DNA of 62,121 nucleotides, filler included, from Coriobacteriales bacterium (lineage in GTDB: Bacteria > Actinomycetota > Coriobacteriia > Coriobacteriales > UBA8131), in assembly GCA_031263105.1 (NCBI GenBank). It is 3 parts of 3 records of this genome, joined end to end, with 100 filler letters (N's around TTAATTAATTAA, not from the genome) between each part and the next. Parts side by side here need not be neighbours in the genome. Positions count along the whole stretch, not along the records: positions 39,404 to 62,121 come from JAISGJ010000106.1; 2 more parts are not named here. The stretch is one strand, 5' to 3'. Shown in pieces: positions 24,048 through 44,910 of the stretch. The position numbers were made by a program, and so were the translations under genes. Below the pieces are notes generated by a model. The model saw only the letters and a list, made by a program, of their open reading frames with translations, was not told where the DNA came from and made no database searches. Each line of letters opens with the position of its first letter. The first letter of the stretch is position 1.

Positions 24048-24147
24048 NNNNNNNNNNNNNNNNNNNNNNNNNNNNNNNNNNNNNNNNNNNNTTAATTAAT
24101 TAANNNNNNNNNNNNNNNNNNNNNNNNNNNNNNNNNNNNNNNNNNNN
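24048..24147. other. Artificial contig spacer
   Basis: 44 N + TTAATTAATTAA + 44 N. Confidence 0.97.
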
Positions 24148-37242: not shown

Positions 37243-39238
37243 CGAAGCTGGGCATCTGCGTCGGCCCGGCGCCCATGCTGAAGCCGCCGCCTGTGCCGAA
37301 GTTCTCGCCCATGCCCCTCTGCCCGAAGCTGTCCGTTCCGGTGCTGGCGGCGGAGGAGGTGACGCGCTGCTGGTAATAGACGGTCGTTCCCTCGTCCAGC
37401 CCACTGGTCACCTCGACGGCGTCCTCGTCGGAGAGGCCGGTCTCGATTGCGACCTCGCCGCCCAGCTCGCCGTCCTCGCTGGCCGTGGTGTACACGAACA
37501 GCTCCTCGCCGCTCTGCTGCACGGCATCGAGGGGGATGAGCACCGCGTCGGTCGCCTGCTCCTTGACGATGGTGGCCGTGGCGGAGAAGCCCGCGTACAT
37601 GCCCTCGGTCTTGGGGATGGCGATAACCGCGTAATAGCTGCCGCCGGAGGAGGAGACCGAGGCCACGGTCCCTTGGAACACCTGGCCCTCCAACGCGCTC
37701 AGCTCCACGGTCGCCTGCTGCCCCGCCTTCACGGCCGCCACGTCCATCTCGTCCAGCTGGATCTGGACCTCCATCTCGCTGTCGGACTTGATCTGGAAGG
37801 CTGCGGCCTCCACGCTGTCTATGGCCACCTCCTCCGAGGTGTCGCTCTGGGTGGCGGCGGTGTTGGTGGCGGCGGGGGCGTTGGTGGTGCCGGTGCCGTT
37901 GGCCGCGTTGGTGCCGCTGGCGGCGCCCGTGCCGCTGGCGGTGCCGTCGGCCGTGTTGCCGCCGGTGCCGGTGTTGGTGCCGCCGGTGCCGCCGGTGCCG
38001 CCGGTGCCGTTGGCGGCGGGGTCGGCGGGGTCGTCGTCCACCACCACATAGGTCGTCTGCGTGGCCTTCGGGTCGTCGGACGAGCTGAAGGTCACGGGGT
38101 ATATGCCTTTTTTGGCAGCAAAGCTGCCGTAGTCGATGCTGAGGGAGGTCGGCTTGGCGGGGTCGGACGTGCTCCACGCCTTGGCCTTGCAGAGGTCTGC
38201 CAGATAGGTCTCGGTGGCCTTTTTCTTGGTGACCTTGGCGGAGGCGACGCAGGCCGCCTTGACCTGGGAGACCGTTGCCGTGGCATAGGGCAGGGCGCTG
38301 ACCGCGTAGCCGGGGTCCTTGTCGGCATCTTTGTCGGCGTCCTTCTCGGCAGCGCCGCCGTCGGCGTCCTTGTCGGCGTCGCCGGTGCCGCCGGTGCCGC
38401 CGGTGCCGGAGCCGTCGGAGCCGGAGGGGTCGGTGCCGGGACTGCCGGAGCCGCCGGTGCCGCCGGTGCCGCCGGTGCCGCCGGAGCCGGAATCGCCGCC
38501 GGAGCCCTCCCCATTGCCGGAACCGGAGGAGTCGCCGGAGCCCTCCCCACTCACCGCGACGATGTGCGCATCGCTGGCTGCCAGTGGCCGGTAGTCGGCC
38601 GTCATGAGGCTGCTGCCTGCCGCCGTGTAGGACGACGGCATGAGGTTGGAGGCACCGGACGAGCCGGACGACGCGTCGGCGGCGGAGCCGGAGTCAGCGC
38701 CTGTGCCGGCCGTTACCGTGTCGCCCTTCTCGACGTTCACGCTGCCGATGGTGCCCGAGGCGCCAGCCCTGAGATACCCCGACGCGTAGAGCGCGTTCAG
38801 GTCGTTCGTCAGCTCCCCGTAGGCGGCGACCACGCGGTCGAGGGTCGCCGACCCGCCGAGCGCGGCCGATGCCTCGGCAAGGGCGTCCGTCTCCTCCTGC
38901 ACCAGGTCGATGGCCTCCTGCACCGATTCGGCGTCCACCGCTGCCAGCACGTCGCCTTCGGCGACCACGTCGCCGGCGCGCACGTAGACATCGGTTATGG
39001 TGATGCCGACGGGCACCTCGACGTCGCTGCTTGCCTCCGCCAGGGTGCCGCTGCCGGTGACCGTGGTGGACACGTCGCCGACCTTGGCCGTGGCATAGGC
39101 GATGAGCGTGTCGGTGGCCTGGCCCTCCGAGGCAGAAAACAGCCTCGGCACCACCAGCGCGGCCCCGGCCACGACGACGACCGCAATACCAACCGCCACA
39201 AACAGCCCTGTCCGTCGGGCCTTCTTTCCCCGCTGCAT
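37214..39238 (-). CDS. MacA/HlyD-like periplasmic adaptor with long Gly/Thr/Ser-rich inserts
   Basis: N-terminal TM, lipoyl-like V.AGDVV.EGD, LDEMDV..VK.GQ.A, TGLSD....EV.SGL. Confidence 0.8.
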   Translation of the reverse strand: MQRGKKARRTGLFVAVGIAVVVVAGAALVVPRLFSASEGQATDTLIAYATAKVGDVSTTVTGSGTLAEASSDVEVPVGITITDVYVRAGDVVAEGDVLAAVDAESVQEAIDLVQEETDALAEASAALGGSATLDRVVAAYGELTNDLNALYASGYLRAGASGTIGSVNVEKGDTVTAGTGADSGSAADASSGSSGASNLMPSSYTAAGSSLMTADYRPLAASDAHIVAVSGEGSGDSSGSGNGEGSGGDSGSGGTGGTGGTGGSGSPGTDPSGSDGSGTGGTGGTGDADKDADGGAAEKDADKDADKDPGYAVSALPYATATVSQVKAACVASAKVTKKKATETYLADLCKAKAWSTSDPAKPTSLSIDYGSFAAKKGIYPVTFSSSDDPKATQTTYVVVDDDPADPAANGTGGTGGTGGTNTGTGGNTADGTASGTGAASGTNAANGTGTTNAPAATNTAATQSDTSEEVAIDSVEAAAFQIKSDSEMEVQIQLDEMDVAAVKAGQQATVELSALEGQVFQGTVASVSSSGGSYYAVIAIPKTEGMYAGFSATATIVKEQATDAVLIPLDAVQQSGEELFVYTTASEDGELGGEVAIETGLSDEDAVEVTSGLDEGTTVYYQQRVTSSAASTGTDSFGQRGMGENFGTGGGFSMGAGPTQMPSFDGGQGPARQ

Positions 39239-39303
39239 GAGTCTCCCGTTCCCTCAAGTACCGCACAATCCGACAGCACTCAGGGTATCCCTCTTGCCTG
39301 AAA

Positions 39304-39403
39304 NNNNNNNNNNNNNNNNNNNNNNNNNNNNNNNNNNNNNNNNNNNNTTAATTAATTAANNNNNNNNNNNNNNNNNNNNNNNNNNNNNNNNNNNNNNNNN
39401 NNN
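39304..39403. other. Artificial contig spacer
   Basis: 44 N + TTAATTAATTAA + 44 N. Confidence 0.97.
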
Positions 39404-39450
39404 GGAGATTGAACCATCAGCACCGTGTTATCTATAAAGTCGACGAATAG
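39404..39450 (+). pseudogene. 3' fragment of a Txe/YoeB-type toxin at the contig edge
   Basis: Frame from 39406 reads RLNHQHRVIYKVDE*, matching the SRRI..xHRLVY motif. Confidence 0.55.
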
Positions 39451-39626
39451 GAAAAGTGGGGGAAATACGCGCGGCGTGGACCCCTTATCATAGATAGCCG
39501 GAGATGGAACAGACTGCTGCTGCTTTTGCGTCCGTATCCCCTCACGGCGCACCAAAACTTTGTTTTAAGATATGATATAGTATGAAATAGTATGATAAAG
39601 AATGATGATGAAGGGACGGTCTCCAG

Positions 39627-39980
39627 ATGGCTACCGCACTGGTTCAGGCAAAGATAGATGCCGATGTCAAAGAGAAAGCAGAGAAGGTGATTAAGCATTA
39701 TGGCCTTGATACCTCTACGGCTGTGAGGATGTTCCTTACGAAGATTGCCAATACCAACGAGATACCCATCAAGCTCACCGAAGAAGATGAGCTGGGCAGT
39801 CTTACCGAGGACGAGCGCCATAACATGCGGGTGTTGGGCATCAGGACGGTTGCCGGTTATCGCAGGTTCGAAGCGGACATGGAGGAAGCGGAAAGGGAGT
39901 TCGCTGAGGGCAAATACAGAAGCTATAAGACGGTGGACGAAGCCTTCGCGGATGTCCTGGGTGCTGATTGGAATGCTTGA
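39627..39980 (+). CDS. RelB/DinJ-family antitoxin
   Basis: VQAKIDADVKEKAE.V...GLDTSTAVRMFL.KIA....IP. Confidence 0.88.
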   Translation: MATALVQAKIDADVKEKAEKVIKHYGLDTSTAVRMFLTKIANTNEIPIKLTEEDELGSLTEDERHNMRVLGIRTVAGYRRFEADMEEAEREFAEGKYRSYKTVDEAFADVLGADWNA

Positions 39981-40236
39981 GCCGGTATTTGAAGATAGAT
40001 TCACTGAGCAGCTGAAACAACTGCAAAAGAGTAACAAGCGATTGGCAATCAAAACGCATGAGCTGGTTACCGATGCGTGTTTGCACCCGTTCACTGGTCT
40101 CGGCAAACCGGAGCCGCTGAAAGGCAACAGGCGCGGACAGTGGTCCAGACGCATCGACCAGAAGAACCGGCTTATCTACCGTGTTATTGAGCCAAATTTA
40201 ATCTGCATCTCCTGTATCGGCCACTACGATGATTAA
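39973..40236 (+). CDS. Txe/YoeB-family toxin
   Basis: PFTGLGKPEPLKG, WSRRIDQKNRLIY, C-terminal GHYDD; overlaps the antitoxin. Confidence 0.92.
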   Translation: MLEPVFEDRFTEQLKQLQKSNKRLAIKTHELVTDACLHPFTGLGKPEPLKGNRRGQWSRRIDQKNRLIYRVIEPNLICISCIGHYDD

Positions 40237-40434
40237 GCGAAGATAAACAGGTGCGATGAAATAATCGTCCATCTTTGAAGAGCCCATCGGGCTGCTATAT
40301 CCTGTACCCGATAGGACTGAAGGACCACCTTACCTTGTTCCCTGTGGTGGATTGTCGATTCATGCATAATGCAGTATAATTACATGAAGTGATTGCCGTT
40401 GTTTGTTTTTTTGCCGCGATAAGAGGAGGCGCGT

Positions 40435-40758
40435 ATGCCGGCGTTACAGGTGCGGGATTTCCCGGCCAGTCTCTATGATGAGCTCAAGGCTCGCGCGAAG
40501 CGTGAGGGCCGCAGCCTTTCGCAGCAAACCATCGTCGCGGTGCGTGAGCATCTGGCCGTCTCTCCGCTACAGCTACAGCTTCAACCCCAGCTCCCGCCCT
40601 CGGATCCCGGATTCCCCGTGCGCGCTGAGGACGAGACGCAGCGCGTCGCGCGTCGCAAGGCGCTGTTTGCGGAAATGGACAAGAGGCCCAGAATCGAGCT
40701 TCCGCCCGATTTCCCCAGCTCGGCTGAGATTGTCCGTGAGATACGCGACGCGCGATGA
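40435..40758 (+). CDS. FitA/VapB-like ribbon-helix-helix antitoxin
   Basis: MPALQVRDFP..LYDELK.RA..EGRSL.QQ; ATGA overlap with the PIN gene. Confidence 0.85.
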   Translation: MPALQVRDFPASLYDELKARAKREGRSLSQQTIVAVREHLAVSPLQLQLQPQLPPSDPGFPVRAEDETQRVARRKALFAEMDKRPRIELPPDFPSSAEIVREIRDAR

Positions 40759-41162
40759 TAGTCCTCGACTGCAGCGCTGCCGTAGAGATTGCATTGGGGA
40801 CCGAGACGGGTCTTTGCCTCCGAACGCTGATGCTCAACGGGGAGCAGGCCATCAGTTCGAGCCTACTCTATGCCGAGGCCGCAAGCGTGTATCGAAAATA
40901 TGTCAGAGCGAACGTGATGACCCAGAGCGAGGCTCTTGCCGCGCTGAATGCGACCGTCCGATTGGCCGATTGTTACGTCGATGTCGTCGAGAACCATGTC
41001 GAGGCTTTTGCCGAATCGCTCCGTTTGGAGCATTCCCCGTATGACCTGCTCTATTTCACCCTTGCTCGCCGCAATGGCGCGACACTTTTCACACTCGACC
41101 GCAAGCTCCTTGAACTCTGCGAGCGCGAAGGAGTCGATTGCGTCCATGTTCTGTCTGAGTAG
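40755..41162 (+). CDS. VapC-family PIN toxin
   Basis: MIVLDCSA, E, SPYDLLY..LARR, LFTLDRKL. Confidence 0.92.
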   Translation: MIVLDCSAAVEIALGTETGLCLRTLMLNGEQAISSSLLYAEAASVYRKYVRANVMTQSEALAALNATVRLADCYVDVVENHVEAFAESLRLEHSPYDLLYFTLARRNGATLFTLDRKLLELCEREGVDCVHVLSE

Positions 41163-41213
41163 GTGCTTGTGGGGATATAGTGTGCAGATTTCAACTGGAG
41201 TGGAAAGGCCATT

Positions 41214-41624
41214 GTGCAGGTATTTCAATCAAAACAAGAGAGAATCAAGGGCACGTCCTATGGCGTTCTCGTCAAAAGAGCCAGAATGCTGTTTGACGCT
41301 GAGGCCAAGAGAACCAAGAGGACTCCCTATATTAGAAGCCCATATTTCGGCAAGGAGAAGATATTCTTGAATCTCTTTTGGGTTCACCTTGGGCAAAAGC
41401 CTCAGCGCGAACGCAAGTACCGCCTCAGATATGTTGCCTGTGCCTTTGATCTTTTGCACAACTCCACGGTTGCTCCAGTATCTAAGCTGAACCCTAACAA
41501 TCCTTTTGAAAAACTGCATCGCTTTGCCGGGGTCTCAAAGGATGGGAACCTGTTCTTTGTCCAAGTCAAAGAGGAGCTAAAGAGCAAAAGAAAGTATTTC
41601 ATGTCCGTATTTTCGCCAAAATAG
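41214..41624 (+). CDS. Basic 136-aa hypothetical protein, possibly a RelE/BECR-fold RNase
   Basis: Clean low-GC ORF, GTG start after GGAG/GAAAGG; K/R-rich; FWVHL...ERKYRL and C-terminal FFVQVKE...KYFMSVF; fold is inferred only. Confidence 0.65.
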   Translation: MQVFQSKQERIKGTSYGVLVKRARMLFDAEAKRTKRTPYIRSPYFGKEKIFLNLFWVHLGQKPQRERKYRLRYVACAFDLLHNSTVAPVSKLNPNNPFEKLHRFAGVSKDGNLFFVQVKEELKSKRKYFMSVFSPK

Positions 41625-41727
41625 GGAAACCCCGCATGTGTAGTGTATAAACTACGCGCTGGGTTTCCTACGACAAGCTCTTGGCTTCGTCTTTGATTAT
41701 AGTATCAGATAAGCAGGTTTTTGGGAA
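41615..41727. ncRNA. Candidate structured RNA, copy 1 of a 145-bp-period direct repeat
   Basis: GGAAACCC/GGGTTTCC, CGC/GCG and GTAGT/ACTAC stems, then a GAC-AAGC/GCTT-C-GTC hairpin; repeat is certain, RNA status inferred. Confidence 0.55.
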
Positions 41728-41759
41728 CCAGTATTTGAGCGTGGGATAATGCCGGCGCT

Positions 41760-41872
41760 GCCAAAATAGGGAAACCCCGCATGTGTAGTGTATGAACTAC
41801 GGGCCGGGTTTCCTGCGACAAGCTCTTGGCTTCGTCTTTGGTTATAGTATCAGATAAGCGAGGTATTGGGAA
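41760..41872. ncRNA. Candidate structured RNA, copy 2
   Basis: 5 mismatches versus copy 1 over 100 bp (41760-41859 vs 41615-41714). Confidence 0.55.
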
Positions 41873-42024
41873 TCTCGCGTCCTAAAGTGCCGTGGGTGAT
41901 GGTTCGGGGGCGGGGTTTGGTTTAGAATAGTACGGTTGGGTGACCGATGCTATAGATGAGCAAATACGCGCGAATACTGCGTGCGGACAGAAGCAAAGAG
42001 CAGCGTGCGTCAGAAAGGATAGAC

Positions 42025-44910
42025 GTGGCACAGGATTATAAGAATACGATGAACCTCCCGCAGACCGACTTCCCCATGCGGGCCGGGCTGCCGGTAAACG
42101 AGCCAAAGCGCCTGGAAAAGTGGGCGCGGATGGACCTCTATCACCGCGTCCTTGAGCAGAACCGGGGCAACAGCTCCTACATCCTGCACGATGGGCCGCC
42201 GTACGCGAACGGCCCCATCCACATTGGGCACGCCTTCAACAAGGTGCTCAAGGACATCATCGTGAAGTACAAGTCGCAGCGCGGCTTCTTCTCGCCGTAT
42301 GTGCCCGGCTGGGACTGCCACGGGCAGCCCATCGAGCACATGGTTGAGACGAGGCTCGGCCCTGAGAAGATGGCGAGGATCGACCAGCCGACGCTCAGGC
42401 GCCTGTGCCGCGACTGGGCCCGCGAGAACATCGACCTGCAGCGCGAGGGCTTCAAGCGCCTCGGCGTGCTCGGCGAGTGGGACGACCCCTACCTCACCTA
42501 CAGGCCCTCCTACGAGGCCGGCAACGTGCGGGTCTTCAAGGCGATGTACGAGGACGGCGCGATCTACCGGGGCCGCAAGCCCATCCATTGGTGCCGTCAC
42601 TGCCACACGGCGCTCGCAGAGGCGGAGATCGAGTACGGCGACGAGGTCTCGCCCTCCGTCTATGTCGCGTTCAGGCTGACGGAGGAGGGCGGGGGCGTCG
42701 CGTCCGCTGGCTCTGCCGCTCCTGTCGCCCCCGCAGCCTTCGCCGAGGCGCCCGCTCCTCTCCACATCCTCATCTGGACGACCACGCCTTGGACGCTGCC
42801 GGCCAACACGGCGGTGTCGCTCGCGCCCCAGGCCGAGTACGTCGTCGTGCTGGCACAGGGCAGGGCGCTCATCATGGCGCGCGAGCTCGTCGAGAGCGTG
42901 GCGGATGCCGTCGGCTGGGCGGGCCACGAACTGCTGCGAGGCTCGGACGGCGAGGTGGCAAGCCTCAAGGGCAGCGAGCTTGCGGGCCTGCACTACGCAC
43001 ATCCCATCCACGACCACATGACGGGCGTCGTCGTCACGGGCGACCACGTGGAGCTTACCACCGGGACCGGCGCCGTGCACACCGCGCCCGGCCACGGCCA
43101 GGACGACTACCTCGTCGGCGAGGCCCACGGGCTGCCCATGCTCATGCCCGTCGACGACAACGGGGTCTTCGACGCGGGCGGCGGCCCCTTCGAAGGGCTG
43201 GATGTGGACGAGGCGAATCCGCGCATCATCGAATGGCTGAAGGAGCGAGGCACGCTCGTCGCGCGCGCCGACATCACGCACAGCTACCCGCACTGCTGGC
43301 GCTGCCACAAGCCGGTCATCTTCCGTGCCACGGACCAGTGGTTCGTGTCGATGGAGGCCACCGGTCTGCGCGATGCGGCCATCGAGGAGATCGGGAAGCT
43401 CAACTGGTACCCTGAGTGGGCCTCCAAGCGCCTGCGCCTGATGGTCGAGGGGCGGCCCGACTGGTGCATCTCGCGCCAGCGCTCCTGGGGCGTACCCATC
43501 CCCGTGTTCAAATGCGCCCACTGCTCGCAGACCGTCGCGACGCCGCAGACCTTCGACGCGGTCATCGCCCTCTTCGAGCGCGAGGGCGCCGACGCCTGGT
43601 TCACGAAGGCGCCCGCCGACTACCTCCCCGAAGGCACATGCTGCGGGCACTGCGGCTCAACGGAGCTGCTCCCCGAGAAGGACATTCTCGACGTCTGGTG
43701 GGAGAGCGGCGTCTCGCACACGAGCGTGCTGGACGCCTATGCCGACCTCGCCCGCCCCGCCGACCTCTACCTCGAGGGCTCCGACCAGCACCGGGGCTGG
43801 TTCCAGAGCTCCCTGCTCACGAGCGTGGGCGCCTATGGGACGGCGCCCTACCGGGGCGTGATGAGCTGTGGCTTCACAGTGGACGAGAACGGCGAGAAGA
43901 TGTCGAAGTCCCGGGGCAACGGCGTCGATCCGGCCGACGTCATAGCCAAGTACGGGGCCGACGTGCTGCGCCTGTGGGTGGGCAGCGTCGACAGCTCGCA
44001 GGACGTGGGCATAGGCGCGAACATCCTCGAGCGCACCGCCGACGCCTACCGGCGCTTCCGCAACACCTTCCGCTTCCTGCTGAGCAACCTCTACGACTTC
44101 GACGCGTCCTGTGGGCCCGTGGGCTGGGAGGAGCTTACGGTCGTCGACCGCTGGGCGCTGGCGCGCCTGCGTCAGGTCGCCCGCGAGGTGGACGCCGCCT
44201 ACGAGGCCTTCCGCTTCCATCAGGCCTACCACGCGCTGTACGACTACGTGGTGAGCGATCTGAGCGCCGTGTACATGGACGCCCTCAAGGACCGCCTGTA
44301 TTCGGACGCAGCCACGAGCACGGAGCGTCGTGCGGCCCAGACCGTGCTGCTCAACATCCTTGAGGTGCTCGTGCGCCAGCTCGCTCCCATCCTGAGCTTC
44401 ACCTGCGACGAGGTCCTTGAGCACTACCCCGAAGGGCTGCGCCACGAGGGCTTCCCCGAGGCGGCGGCGCTCGCAGGCTGGCCTGTGGACGGCGACTACG
44501 TCCCTGCCGCCCCTGCCGGGGAGGCCGAGCGCATCCTGGAGGACTTCGCCGTGGTGCTCGGGGTGCGCGACGTGGTGACGAAGGCGTTGGAGGAGGCACG
44601 TGGCGCAAAGGTCGTCGGCAAGAGCCAGGAGGCGCAGGTCTCCCTCACCGTCTCGCCCGAGGCCGCCGAGACCCTGTCGGCCCTGCCCGCAGGCACGCTC
44701 GAGGAGCTGCTCATCGTCGCCAAGGTGGAGCTTGCCGTCGCAGACGGCCTGCCCGCGCCGCAGGTTGAGGTCACGAAGGCGGCAGGGGAGAAGTGCCCCC
44801 GCTGCTGGAACATCCGAGAACTGGGGGAGGATCCCGCCCATCCGGCGGTCTGCGCCCGCTGCGCCGCAGTGCTGGCGTCCCGGGGCCACAGGGGAGAGGG
44901 CGCCTCGTGA
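42025..44910 (+). CDS. ileS: Isoleucine--tRNA ligase
   Basis: GPPYANG..HIGH, WCISRQR, KMSKS, C-terminal CPRCW..C..C; GAAAGGA RBS before GTG 42025. Confidence 0.98.
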   Translation: MAQDYKNTMNLPQTDFPMRAGLPVNEPKRLEKWARMDLYHRVLEQNRGNSSYILHDGPPYANGPIHIGHAFNKVLKDIIVKYKSQRGFFSPYVPGWDCHGQPIEHMVETRLGPEKMARIDQPTLRRLCRDWARENIDLQREGFKRLGVLGEWDDPYLTYRPSYEAGNVRVFKAMYEDGAIYRGRKPIHWCRHCHTALAEAEIEYGDEVSPSVYVAFRLTEEGGGVASAGSAAPVAPAAFAEAPAPLHILIWTTTPWTLPANTAVSLAPQAEYVVVLAQGRALIMARELVESVADAVGWAGHELLRGSDGEVASLKGSELAGLHYAHPIHDHMTGVVVTGDHVELTTGTGAVHTAPGHGQDDYLVGEAHGLPMLMPVDDNGVFDAGGGPFEGLDVDEANPRIIEWLKERGTLVARADITHSYPHCWRCHKPVIFRATDQWFVSMEATGLRDAAIEEIGKLNWYPEWASKRLRLMVEGRPDWCISRQRSWGVPIPVFKCAHCSQTVATPQTFDAVIALFEREGADAWFTKAPADYLPEGTCCGHCGSTELLPEKDILDVWWESGVSHTSVLDAYADLARPADLYLEGSDQHRGWFQSSLLTSVGAYGTAPYRGVMSCGFTVDENGEKMSKSRGNGVDPADVIAKYGADVLRLWVGSVDSSQDVGIGANILERTADAYRRFRNTFRFLLSNLYDFDASCGPVGWEELTVVDRWALARLRQVAREVDAAYEAFRFHQAYHALYDYVVSDLSAVYMDALKDRLYSDAATSTERRAAQTVLLNILEVLVRQLAPILSFTCDEVLEHYPEGLRHEGFPEAAALAGWPVDGDYVPAAPAGEAERILEDFAVVLGVRDVVTKALEEARGAKVVGKSQEAQVSLTVSPEAAETLSALPAGTLEELLIVAKVELAVADGLPAPQVEVTKAAGEKCPRCWNIRELGEDPAHPAVCARCAAVLASRGHRGEGAS

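Follow-up and report, generated by a model that had tools for sequence, protein, structure and literature searches.

A basic protein gene and a convergent hairpin RNA gene, linked across Patescibacteria and present in a Coriobacteriales genome, form a candidate RNA-antidote module

What might be the function of a gene for a small and very basic protein that sits at the end of a run of toxin-antitoxin (TA) modules, that has no protein antitoxin beside it, and that is followed from its stop codon onward by a duplicated hairpin element? This question is raised by one locus in the window, i.e., in the whole stretch of 62,121 nucleotides (nt) from a Coriobacteriales bacterium (GenBank assembly GCA_031263105.1) that was analysed here. 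An earlier note on this DNA had read the locus as a type III-like TA system in which a ribonuclease (RNase) of the RelE/BECR type is neutralised by RNA. According to the comparisons presented below, the hairpin element appears to be a self-contained small RNA (sRNA) gene of 55-80 nt that converges on the protein gene, because it has a covarying hairpin, a bias towards G-U pairs on the antisense strand and a promoter on its own strand. The sRNA may bind and neutralise a toxic protein; toxicity as well as neutralisation are inferred, and this reading is given a probability of roughly 0.4.

The protein encoded in the window (136 amino acids [aa], pI 10.43, 29 Lys and Arg versus 10 Asp and Glu residues) belongs to a family that is genuine and conserved though unnamed. 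A word-indexed search returned 30 proteins including that of the window, the other 29 being 43-69% identical and nearly all 117-150 aa long, and a profile search among 1.84 billion representatives yielded 300 clusters at E <= 0.001, including 83 with E <= 1e-30. Taking one genome per species, 318 stretches encoding a relative were obtained. The RNA was examined at the best 80 of these 318 genome loci (513 kb searched), nearly all of which come from Patescibacteria (Saccharibacteria, Parcubacteria, Berkelbacteria, Uhrbacteria and others). In the family alignment R36, Y39, K49, W56, R67, R70, R103, F104, G106, E120 and K127 are invariant, and H58, H102, N93, P94, E99, Q117 and K119 are nearly so. 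Apart from a chance match to DUF7911, the protein of the window has no match in Pfam, NCBIfam, PHROG or PADLOC at E <= 10; a meaningful Pfam match was found for 0 of 30 family members, the RelE/ParE/YoeB/HigB/BrnT models likewise recognised 0 of 30, and a profile search of the PDB sequences resulted in chance matches only (E at least 0.1).

The DNA 3' of the stop codons of these homologues carries a near-universal element consisting of an A run, a variable outer stem, an internal loop, an inner stem of 5 bp with its own loop (both loops being conserved), and a T run, followed about 45 nt further on by a conserved TGTCAA. For the strand opposite to the gene a covariance model was built (R1; its re-framed rebuild is called R2), which matches this strand at 79 of the 80 loci (E <= 0.03). 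The earlier note had proposed to look for a structure conserved downstream of homologues, and such a structure, a covarying hairpin adjoining the stop codon, is indeed found at 78 of the 80 loci. At locus L014 the R1 match lies 543 nt upstream of the gene and not at its stop codon, and L075 has no R1 match, a nested variant being visible there by eye. In the rest of the 513 kb, R1 matches are weak (E >= 0.048) or represent the same sites on the other strand. Counted from the stop codon, the last paired base lies at a median distance of 1 nt, and between -3 and +8 in 57 of 77 matches. Each of five whole genomes (about 1 Mb) has a single gene and, always adjacent to it, one or two RNA copies; with so few copies per genome the hairpin is therefore not a dispersed repeat.

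With respect to its structure, 95.7% of the 1360 cells in the R2 alignment (77 hits, 76 of them distinct) are in standard pairs, 15 of the 18 pairs vary on both sides, and 233 cells are compensatory. None of 500 shuffles matched any of the five covariation measures, and sliding the partners by 1-3 columns left 50-60% paired. The polarity of the element is evident from the paired columns, which contain 141 G-U cells on the strand opposite to the gene in contrast to only eight A-C cells, the equivalent of G-U on the gene's strand. In minimum free energy (MFE) predictions, which do not depend on the alignment, the antisense RNA has the more stable fold for 65 out of 72 distinct sequences, with a mean MFE of -23.1 versus -17.8 kcal/mol (p = 3e-11, Wilcoxon test) and 167 versus 60 G-U pairs. 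Also the unpaired positions are conserved, namely a G-G mismatch (88% and 84%), the loop U-U-A-U-A (82-91%), and the A and the C that follow the inner stem (97% and 82%, respectively). Averaged over 2686 locus pairs, the RNA core is 77.5% identical, compared to 58.1% for the DNA of the open reading frame (ORF), and between the window and the Saccharibacteria locus L009 the respective values are 97% and 56%. Complementarity alone does not demand the conservation of unpaired sequence; something reads the sequence of this RNA.

At L020, L021, L027 (769-877), L030 (3408-3487), L070, L071, L075 and L080 an inserted hairpin or a duplicate of the inner stem takes the place of the apical loop, with outer stem and internal loop retained. 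Pairing of the sRNA loop with the 5' end of the messenger RNA (mRNA) was considered and rejected, as inspection by eye revealed just a short AU palindrome forced by the coding sequence. Searches against Rfam 15 gave a best score of 18.3 bits against a threshold of 64 for positions 39000-43000 of the window, tRNAs only for 20 homologous loci, and nothing over 17 bits for positions 3350-3600 of L044.

Upstream of the hairpin on the antisense strand there is an exact TTGACA in 57 of 73 hits, with a spacer of 16-18 nt (17 nt in 41 hits), and the TG of an extended -10 box is found in 49 of 73. In 63 of 73 hits the -10 hexamer ends between -3 and +7 nt ahead of the position at which the model begins, and transcription should therefore begin at the foot of the hairpin and yield a predicted RNA of 55-60 nt comprising the hairpin and a U tract. 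Hexamer scores of 10 or more out of 12 are reached in 52 of 72 cases, in contrast to two of 72 on the other strand and three of 360 random 75-nt stretches taken from these loci. The conservation across phyla of hairpin, antisense polarity and opposite-strand promoter bears out the earlier proposal that each unit is an independent convergent small transcript.

In the window, the module and its surroundings comprise the following features:

41214..41624, plus strand: gene for the 136-aa basic protein of the unnamed family (GTG start; fold matches)
41625..41668, minus strand: conserved bulged hairpin of sRNA copy 1, which is the terminator stem too (covariance model and fold)
41672..41691, minus strand: small 5' hairpin of sRNA copy 1, between the predicted start and the main hairpin (predicted fold)
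41699..41727, minus strand: promoter of sRNA copy 1 (alignment with the family consensus TTGACA-16/18-TGnTAnnnT)
41770..41813, minus strand: conserved bulged hairpin of sRNA copy 2 (covariance model)
41817..41836, minus strand: small 5' hairpin of sRNA copy 2 (homologous to that of copy 1 at +145)
41844..41872, minus strand: promoter of sRNA copy 2, with -35 box TTCCCA (41867-41872), TG, and -10 box TACTAT (41844-41849)
41615..41872: tandem duplication with a period of 145, comprising the whole sRNA gene from promoter to terminator and the last 9-10 nt of the ORF
39627..41162, plus strand: RelB/YoeB and RHH/PIN type II TA pairs in the same low-GC island (Pfam; GC profile)
41956-44910: ileS, downstream of the module

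The very basic, low-GC ORF of 136 aa, the duplication with a period of 145 nt and both hairpins are all present as described before. The segments 41615-41727 and 41760-41872 (113 nt, spacing 145) are 92% identical and differ at nine positions; the five mismatches previously reported for the 100-nt unit were recounted with the same result (41649, 41657, 41660, 41670 and 41696), and the assembly of 2.9 Mb contains just these two copies. Folding predicts the long bulged stem as well as the second hairpin, with Z-scores compared to shuffled sequences of -4.1 and -2.7 on the plus strand and of -2.9 and -2.4 on the minus strand. R1 recognises copy 1 with 52.2 bits (41617-41676, minus strand) and copy 2 with 51.8 bits (41762-41821, minus strand), and R2 gives 60.8 and 62.1 bits, respectively. 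The base of the copy 1 hairpin begins right after the stop codon of the ORF, and the small 5' hairpin is restricted to the window and a few close relatives. The promoter of copy 1 consists of a -35 box TTCCCA (41722-41727), a 17-nt spacer, the TG (41706-41707), one base, and the -10 box TACTAT (41699-41704), which sits 22 nt before the model start, with the small extra hairpin intervening. Judged from this arrangement, the RNA of copy 1 would have about 76 nt, starting near 41692 and ending near 41617. The minus-strand TATAAT that had been taken for the -10 box has thus to be replaced by TACTAT, which is the true box by homology and overlaps the former by three bases, and the change from TATAAT to TATAAC in copy 2 falls just outside the -10 box.

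An assembly artefact, which had been named beforehand as one of the findings that would refute the earlier interpretation, is countered by a 124-nt contig that was produced by a different assembler, probably out of the sample that also gave the metagenome-assembled genome (MAG) of the window, and that reaches from within copy 1 over the spacer and into copy 2 (41666-41789); such an artefact is therefore unlikely. In a search for sequencing runs containing this stretch, one DNA run and no RNA run was found, a result that has no bearing on its expression. The summed contig depth in the DNA run is 101-130 over the repeat (41652-41698 and 41746-41839) versus 16 over the ORF, and a loose contig end at 41827 is a variant of the promoter-proximal part, which together suggest related copies of the RNA element in other strains or organisms of the same sample.

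The window consists of MAG contigs strung together and parted by runs of N at 24048-24147 and 39304-39403, across which features must not be linked. Both the ORF and the repeat reside wholly within a single contig (C24 of G000) that also bears ileS. The GC content is 44-50% around the ORF, compared to 60-78% in the flanks (60-72% from position 42000 onward). RelB/YoeB (39627-40236) as well as the RHH antitoxin and PIN toxin (40435-41162; Pfam) are encoded upstream of the ORF, and only 51 nt separate the latter from the stop codon of the PIN gene. This gap has no space for a protein antitoxin. The start codon GTG of the ORF is preceded, 6 nt ahead, by GGAAAGG. In the 163-aa ORF at 39745-40236 the YoeB match is confined to residues 82-161, and the real yoeB start probably lies near 39988, directly after relB (39627-39980). 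No tRNA or tmRNA was detected in the window, and the leader of ileS (41873-41955) has no T-box or other Rfam match at E <= 10.

As to the fold of the protein, the AlphaFold2 model computed with the family alignment has a pLDDT of 95.9 and a pTM of 0.89. In an exhaustive VIA search of the PDB, RelE/ParE-type toxins top the list with matches to residues ~46-136, including 7vd7_A (Z 4.8, rmsd 3.8 A, 81 residues), the archaeal RelE 1wmi_C (Z 4.7), E. coli RelE (Z 4.3), BrnT 3u97_A (Z 4.2) and YoeB (Z 4.1), and Foldseek finds HigB2 and RelE in the PDB at a probability of 0.5-0.7. The structure search of the ESM Atlas returned an LPD3 cluster with TM 0.62/0.68 over 112 residues, which meets the naming bar, and also PBECR3/2, BrnT and MqsR clusters (TM 0.41-0.52 for BrnT/MqsR/PBECR). 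Among the viral models of BFVD, LPD/LPD3 phage polyvalent proteins come out on top (probability 0.99-1.00, TMq 0.46-0.59), followed by MuF-C. The fold shared by the RelE/ParE superfamily is a strand followed by two helices and a sheet of three to four strands. In sum, the C-terminal part (residues ~46-136) appears to be RelE/BECR-like and the whole protein resembles LPD3, with an extra N-terminal helix and strands (~45 residues) beyond the toxin-like part. A BECR-type fold is thus supported at moderate strength and by structure alone: the earlier RelE/BECR assignment agrees with the structural matches, at weak to moderate scores, and lacks any match to a sequence family. The hidden Markov model of LPD3 (PF18798) has no match at E <= 1 in 30 of 30 family members, and an LPD3 search of the window's genome was blank, although the control genomes (301 genomes in all) were equally blank.

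In the family to which the organism of the window belongs, the gene is found in four of 33 other genomes, and it is absent from all 27 genomes that represent further families of this order, many of these genomes being incomplete; all four carriers have a weak match (18-25 bits) in the expected place and orientation. Two loci from this taxonomic family, L090 (G012:C34) and L087 (G035:C154), were flagged for a partial match (residues 64-135, 74-aa frame) or an internal TAA; both retain a weak antisense hairpin and possibly represent decaying copies. At L091 (1100-1260; G001:C18) there is an extra RNA gene with an exact TTGACA and an intact hairpin (46 bits with R2), which adjoins just the last ~20 codons of the protein gene, with stop codons lying ahead of these. 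L018 carries two tandem sRNA genes (2564-2738) with differing apical loops, a duplication that arose independently of the one in the window, and L009 has a divergent second copy of the gene with a weaker hairpin and a TGTCAA box. Upstream, the nearest ORFs (77 in all) belong to unrelated housekeeping genes, including those for FtsW, MurD, DprA, PolA, UvrD and the ribosomal proteins S8, S19, L6 and L12, with no family in more than two loci. No conserved protein partner was found by this family scan, which covered the upstream ORFs, those downstream having been listed. Relatives are absent from 2.9 million viral contigs in a pattern-limited scan with the family alignment, and tblastn found none in 50,697 phage records or 72,556 plasmids. 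The low GC content together with the patchy occurrence points to horizontal acquisition. In many of the Patescibacteria copies (L006-L085), inspection by eye of the 90 nt ahead of the gene shows a -10-like box, extended by TG, at a distance of only 7-12 nt from the start codon; a Shine-Dalgarno sequence is absent, and the mRNAs of these copies may thus be leaderless.

The domain is also found in three fusion proteins, in all of which its conserved motifs are retained: P0074 (685 aa) comprises an HNH nuclease, a nucleoside triphosphatase (NTPase) of the STAND/NACHT type and the domain, P0094 (736 aa) a STAND NTPase and the domain, and P0108 (299 aa) is a similar fragment. Metagenome scans with two STAND fusion proteins found no relative. 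In STAND NTPases, the C terminus is usually the sensor domain.

Taken together, the locus is a compact, autonomous two-gene module, in which a hairpin RNA gene complete with promoter and terminator, and under selection for both structure and sequence, converges on the protein gene. Its first gene encodes the basic, BECR/LPD3-like protein of 136 aa, a probable RNA-cleaving or RNA-binding toxin, and its second, convergent gene would, from a strong promoter of its own, give rise to an sRNA of 55-80 nt made up of one bulged hairpin and a U tail. This sRNA would be the antidote, produced in excess, and might bind the protein via the G-G mismatch, the UUAUAY loop and the AC bulge, the conservation of these unpaired nucleotides favouring direct recognition of the RNA by the protein. 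The module would then be type III-like by mechanism and unlike type III by architecture. Since the mRNA would, at its 3' end, be exactly complementary to the sRNA, an antisense action of the latter, as in type I systems, would be built in besides. In the window, the module would be part of a horizontally acquired TA island in which the whole sRNA gene was duplicated in tandem. A TA-type module with an RNA antidote fits the lack of a conserved protein partner among the upstream ORFs, the toxin-like fold, the patchy spread and the varied insertion sites, and it also fits the TA island, the very strong promoter, the two independent duplications of the RNA gene and an RNA gene outliving its protein gene.

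A number of observations weigh against neutralisation of a toxin by the sRNA. Foldseek found nothing in the PDB at E <= 0.001, and with a maximum Z of 4.8 no VIA match reaches 5, which is in the chance range given that unrelated models typically attain 7-8. The LPD domains, to which the best structural relative LPD3 belongs, are listed as being of unknown function in the passages on them in Iyer et al. (2017, PMC5512222). Since the alignments were fitted to the covariance model they favour its structure and strand, the margins being large nonetheless. In the two copies of the window it is the plus-strand fold that is more stable, by 2-6 kcal/mol, and the window's promoter scores only 8 of 12, was missed by a simple scanner and is recognised solely by homology. 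Finally, the C-terminal position of the domain in two STAND NTPase fusions fits a binding role better than a toxic one.

It is especially this last point, together with the strong conservation of the RNA core, which suggests a specific protein-RNA complex, that would also agree with a non-toxic ribonucleoprotein or an RNA-processing or RNA-sensing factor residing beside its dedicated sRNA and acting in defence or RNA quality control: one of the STAND NTPases carrying the domain at the C terminus has an N-terminal HNH nuclease, and no toxicity is known for LPD3. However, the distribution of the module is patchy and accessory with variable insertion sites, in the window it lies within a TA island, a gene remnant is found beside an intact RNA gene, and the strength of the sRNA promoter goes far beyond what an RNA made in stoichiometric amounts would need, so that this alternative is considered unlikely. 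The sRNA might, in turn, act solely by pairing with the 3' hairpin of the toxin mRNA and not on the protein, as in type I-like antisense modules, either through cleavage of the duplex with loss of the protective 3' stem or through interference by convergent transcription. By its geometry the sRNA would be complementary over its full length to the 3' end of the mRNA, the A run before and the T run after the hairpin could terminate both transcripts, and for the many leaderless-looking copies in Patescibacteria the 3' end would be an accessible control point; moreover, the sRNA loop starts with UUUA and thus presumably conforms to the YUNR loop motif of antisense RNAs. However, pairing does not need conservation of the primary sequence, and yet the unpaired core is 82-97% conserved and the core as a whole more so than the ORF DNA; in addition, both partners are stable hairpins, and a soluble basic protein of 136 aa is unlike the small hydrophobic peptides of type I. 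An action by pairing alone is therefore regarded as unlikely.

The stem flanked by A and T runs also resembles a bidirectional terminator, and as the boxes in the window are weak and copy 2 retains the last 9-10 nt of the ORF, one could suppose an ordinary terminator next to the end of a lost second gene or an artefact, with promoter boxes arising by chance. This is very improbable in view of a loop and bulge sequence that is kept across phyla, of G-U pairs found almost solely on the antisense strand, of a consensus promoter that recurs at a constant distance in 52 of 72 sequences versus 2 of 72 on the other strand, and of the contig that bridges the copies. Even less credible is a hairpin serving as the end of a small mobile element or as a recombination site (REP/RAYT, IS200-like, attC), with the protein as recombinase. 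Such an element would account for a compact module at many unrelated sites and for a hairpin directly after a cassette-like ORF, but there are only one or two hairpin copies per genome, always beside the gene, the protein matches no Y1 transposase or other recombinase family and has a BECR-like rather than an HUH fold, no second end element was seen upstream, and the conserved promoter would be left without a role. Whatever probability these readings leave, including the neutralisation of a toxin by the sRNA, falls to an explanation that is not among them. A wider version of the RNA-antidote reading would make the module a representative of a widespread, undescribed class, in which an RNase of the BECR/LPD3 fold is silenced by a minimal and sequence-specific convergent hairpin sRNA with a terminator common to both genes, i.e., a third architecture beside types I and III, serving Patescibacteria as an addiction or anti-phage module, passed on horizontally to Actinomycetota, and with its domain reused in STAND NTPases. 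This extension is more doubtful than neutralisation as such and is put forward tentatively.

The arrangement had not been recognised when the locus was first described, and in line with this there is no match in Rfam or Pfam, and no description of the protein-RNA pair was found in the full-text literature, subscription-only papers aside. Among the known systems, those of type III (ToxIN, CptIN, TenpIN) likewise combine a protein of probable RNA-directed activity with a small structured RNA, do without a protein antitoxin and may have the RNA in multiple copies, and the inhibition of the protein by its RNA, as proposed here, would be a further common feature. The antitoxin of type III systems is an upstream, co-transcribed array of 34-36-nt repeats that is processed by the toxin. 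In contrast, the RNA described here lies downstream on the opposite strand, has its own promoter and forms a single hairpin unit, the two copies in the window being duplicates of the whole gene 145 nt apart, and the protein has no ToxN/AbiQ, CptN or TenpN match in Pfam or PADLOC. As regards architecture, the label type III-like therefore does not hold, as there is neither an upstream co-transcribed repeat array nor a toxin of the ToxN, CptN or TenpN family. Convergent RNAs are known from type I systems such as par/Fst of pAD1 (RNA I-RNA II), txpA/RatA and bsrG/SR4. Here as there, toxin mRNA and sRNA would overlap at their 3' ends and have a common terminator hairpin, the antitoxin promoter is strong, and an mRNA with its 3' end at the hairpin or further downstream would be complementary to the sRNA (median gap 1 nt). 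However, the toxin-like protein is a basic, BECR-like protein of 136 aa, predicted to be globular and soluble, and not a small membrane peptide, and the sRNA consists nearly entirely of the hairpin common to both transcripts, with unpaired nucleotides conserved across phyla.

Residues ~46-136 of the protein align with the RelE/ParE/YoeB/HigB/BrnT toxins, and conserved E, H, R, K and Y are present in it, but it differs in lacking a match at the sequence level and an adjacent protein antitoxin, and its scores are within the range of unrelated folds. LPD3 (PF18798) together with PBECR/MuF-C provides the best structural match, over nearly the whole protein; in contrast to LPD3, however, the protein is standalone and chromosomal and not part of a polyvalent protein of a phage or conjugative element. 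A further parallel is offered by Rsr (Ro60), the gene of which sits beside Y RNAs, so that in both cases a protein gene and a dedicated small structured RNA are neighbours; however, folds and RNAs are unrelated, and the genes described here are convergent, have a common terminator and are distributed like a selfish element.

The module thus falls under the architectural definition of neither type I nor type III. To our knowledge, only three families of type III are known, and nearly all type I toxins are small peptides. If the proposed neutralisation is true, the module would extend the RNA-antitoxin systems by new families of both protein and RNA as well as by a new arrangement of the genes, and a RelE-like toxin under RNA control would tie the largest superfamily of type II toxins to RNA antitoxins. 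As the STAND fusions hint, recognition of an RNA hairpin may also be the role of the domain in immune receptors, which, if true, would amount to an RNA-hairpin-sensing immune receptor. As far as we know, the RNA biology and the defence systems of Patescibacteria are almost unexplored, and with its ~600 bp the module is among the few conserved sRNA genes that can be recognised across this group, combining the convergent layout and common terminator of type I with a structured RNA that, as in type III, may act on the protein itself.

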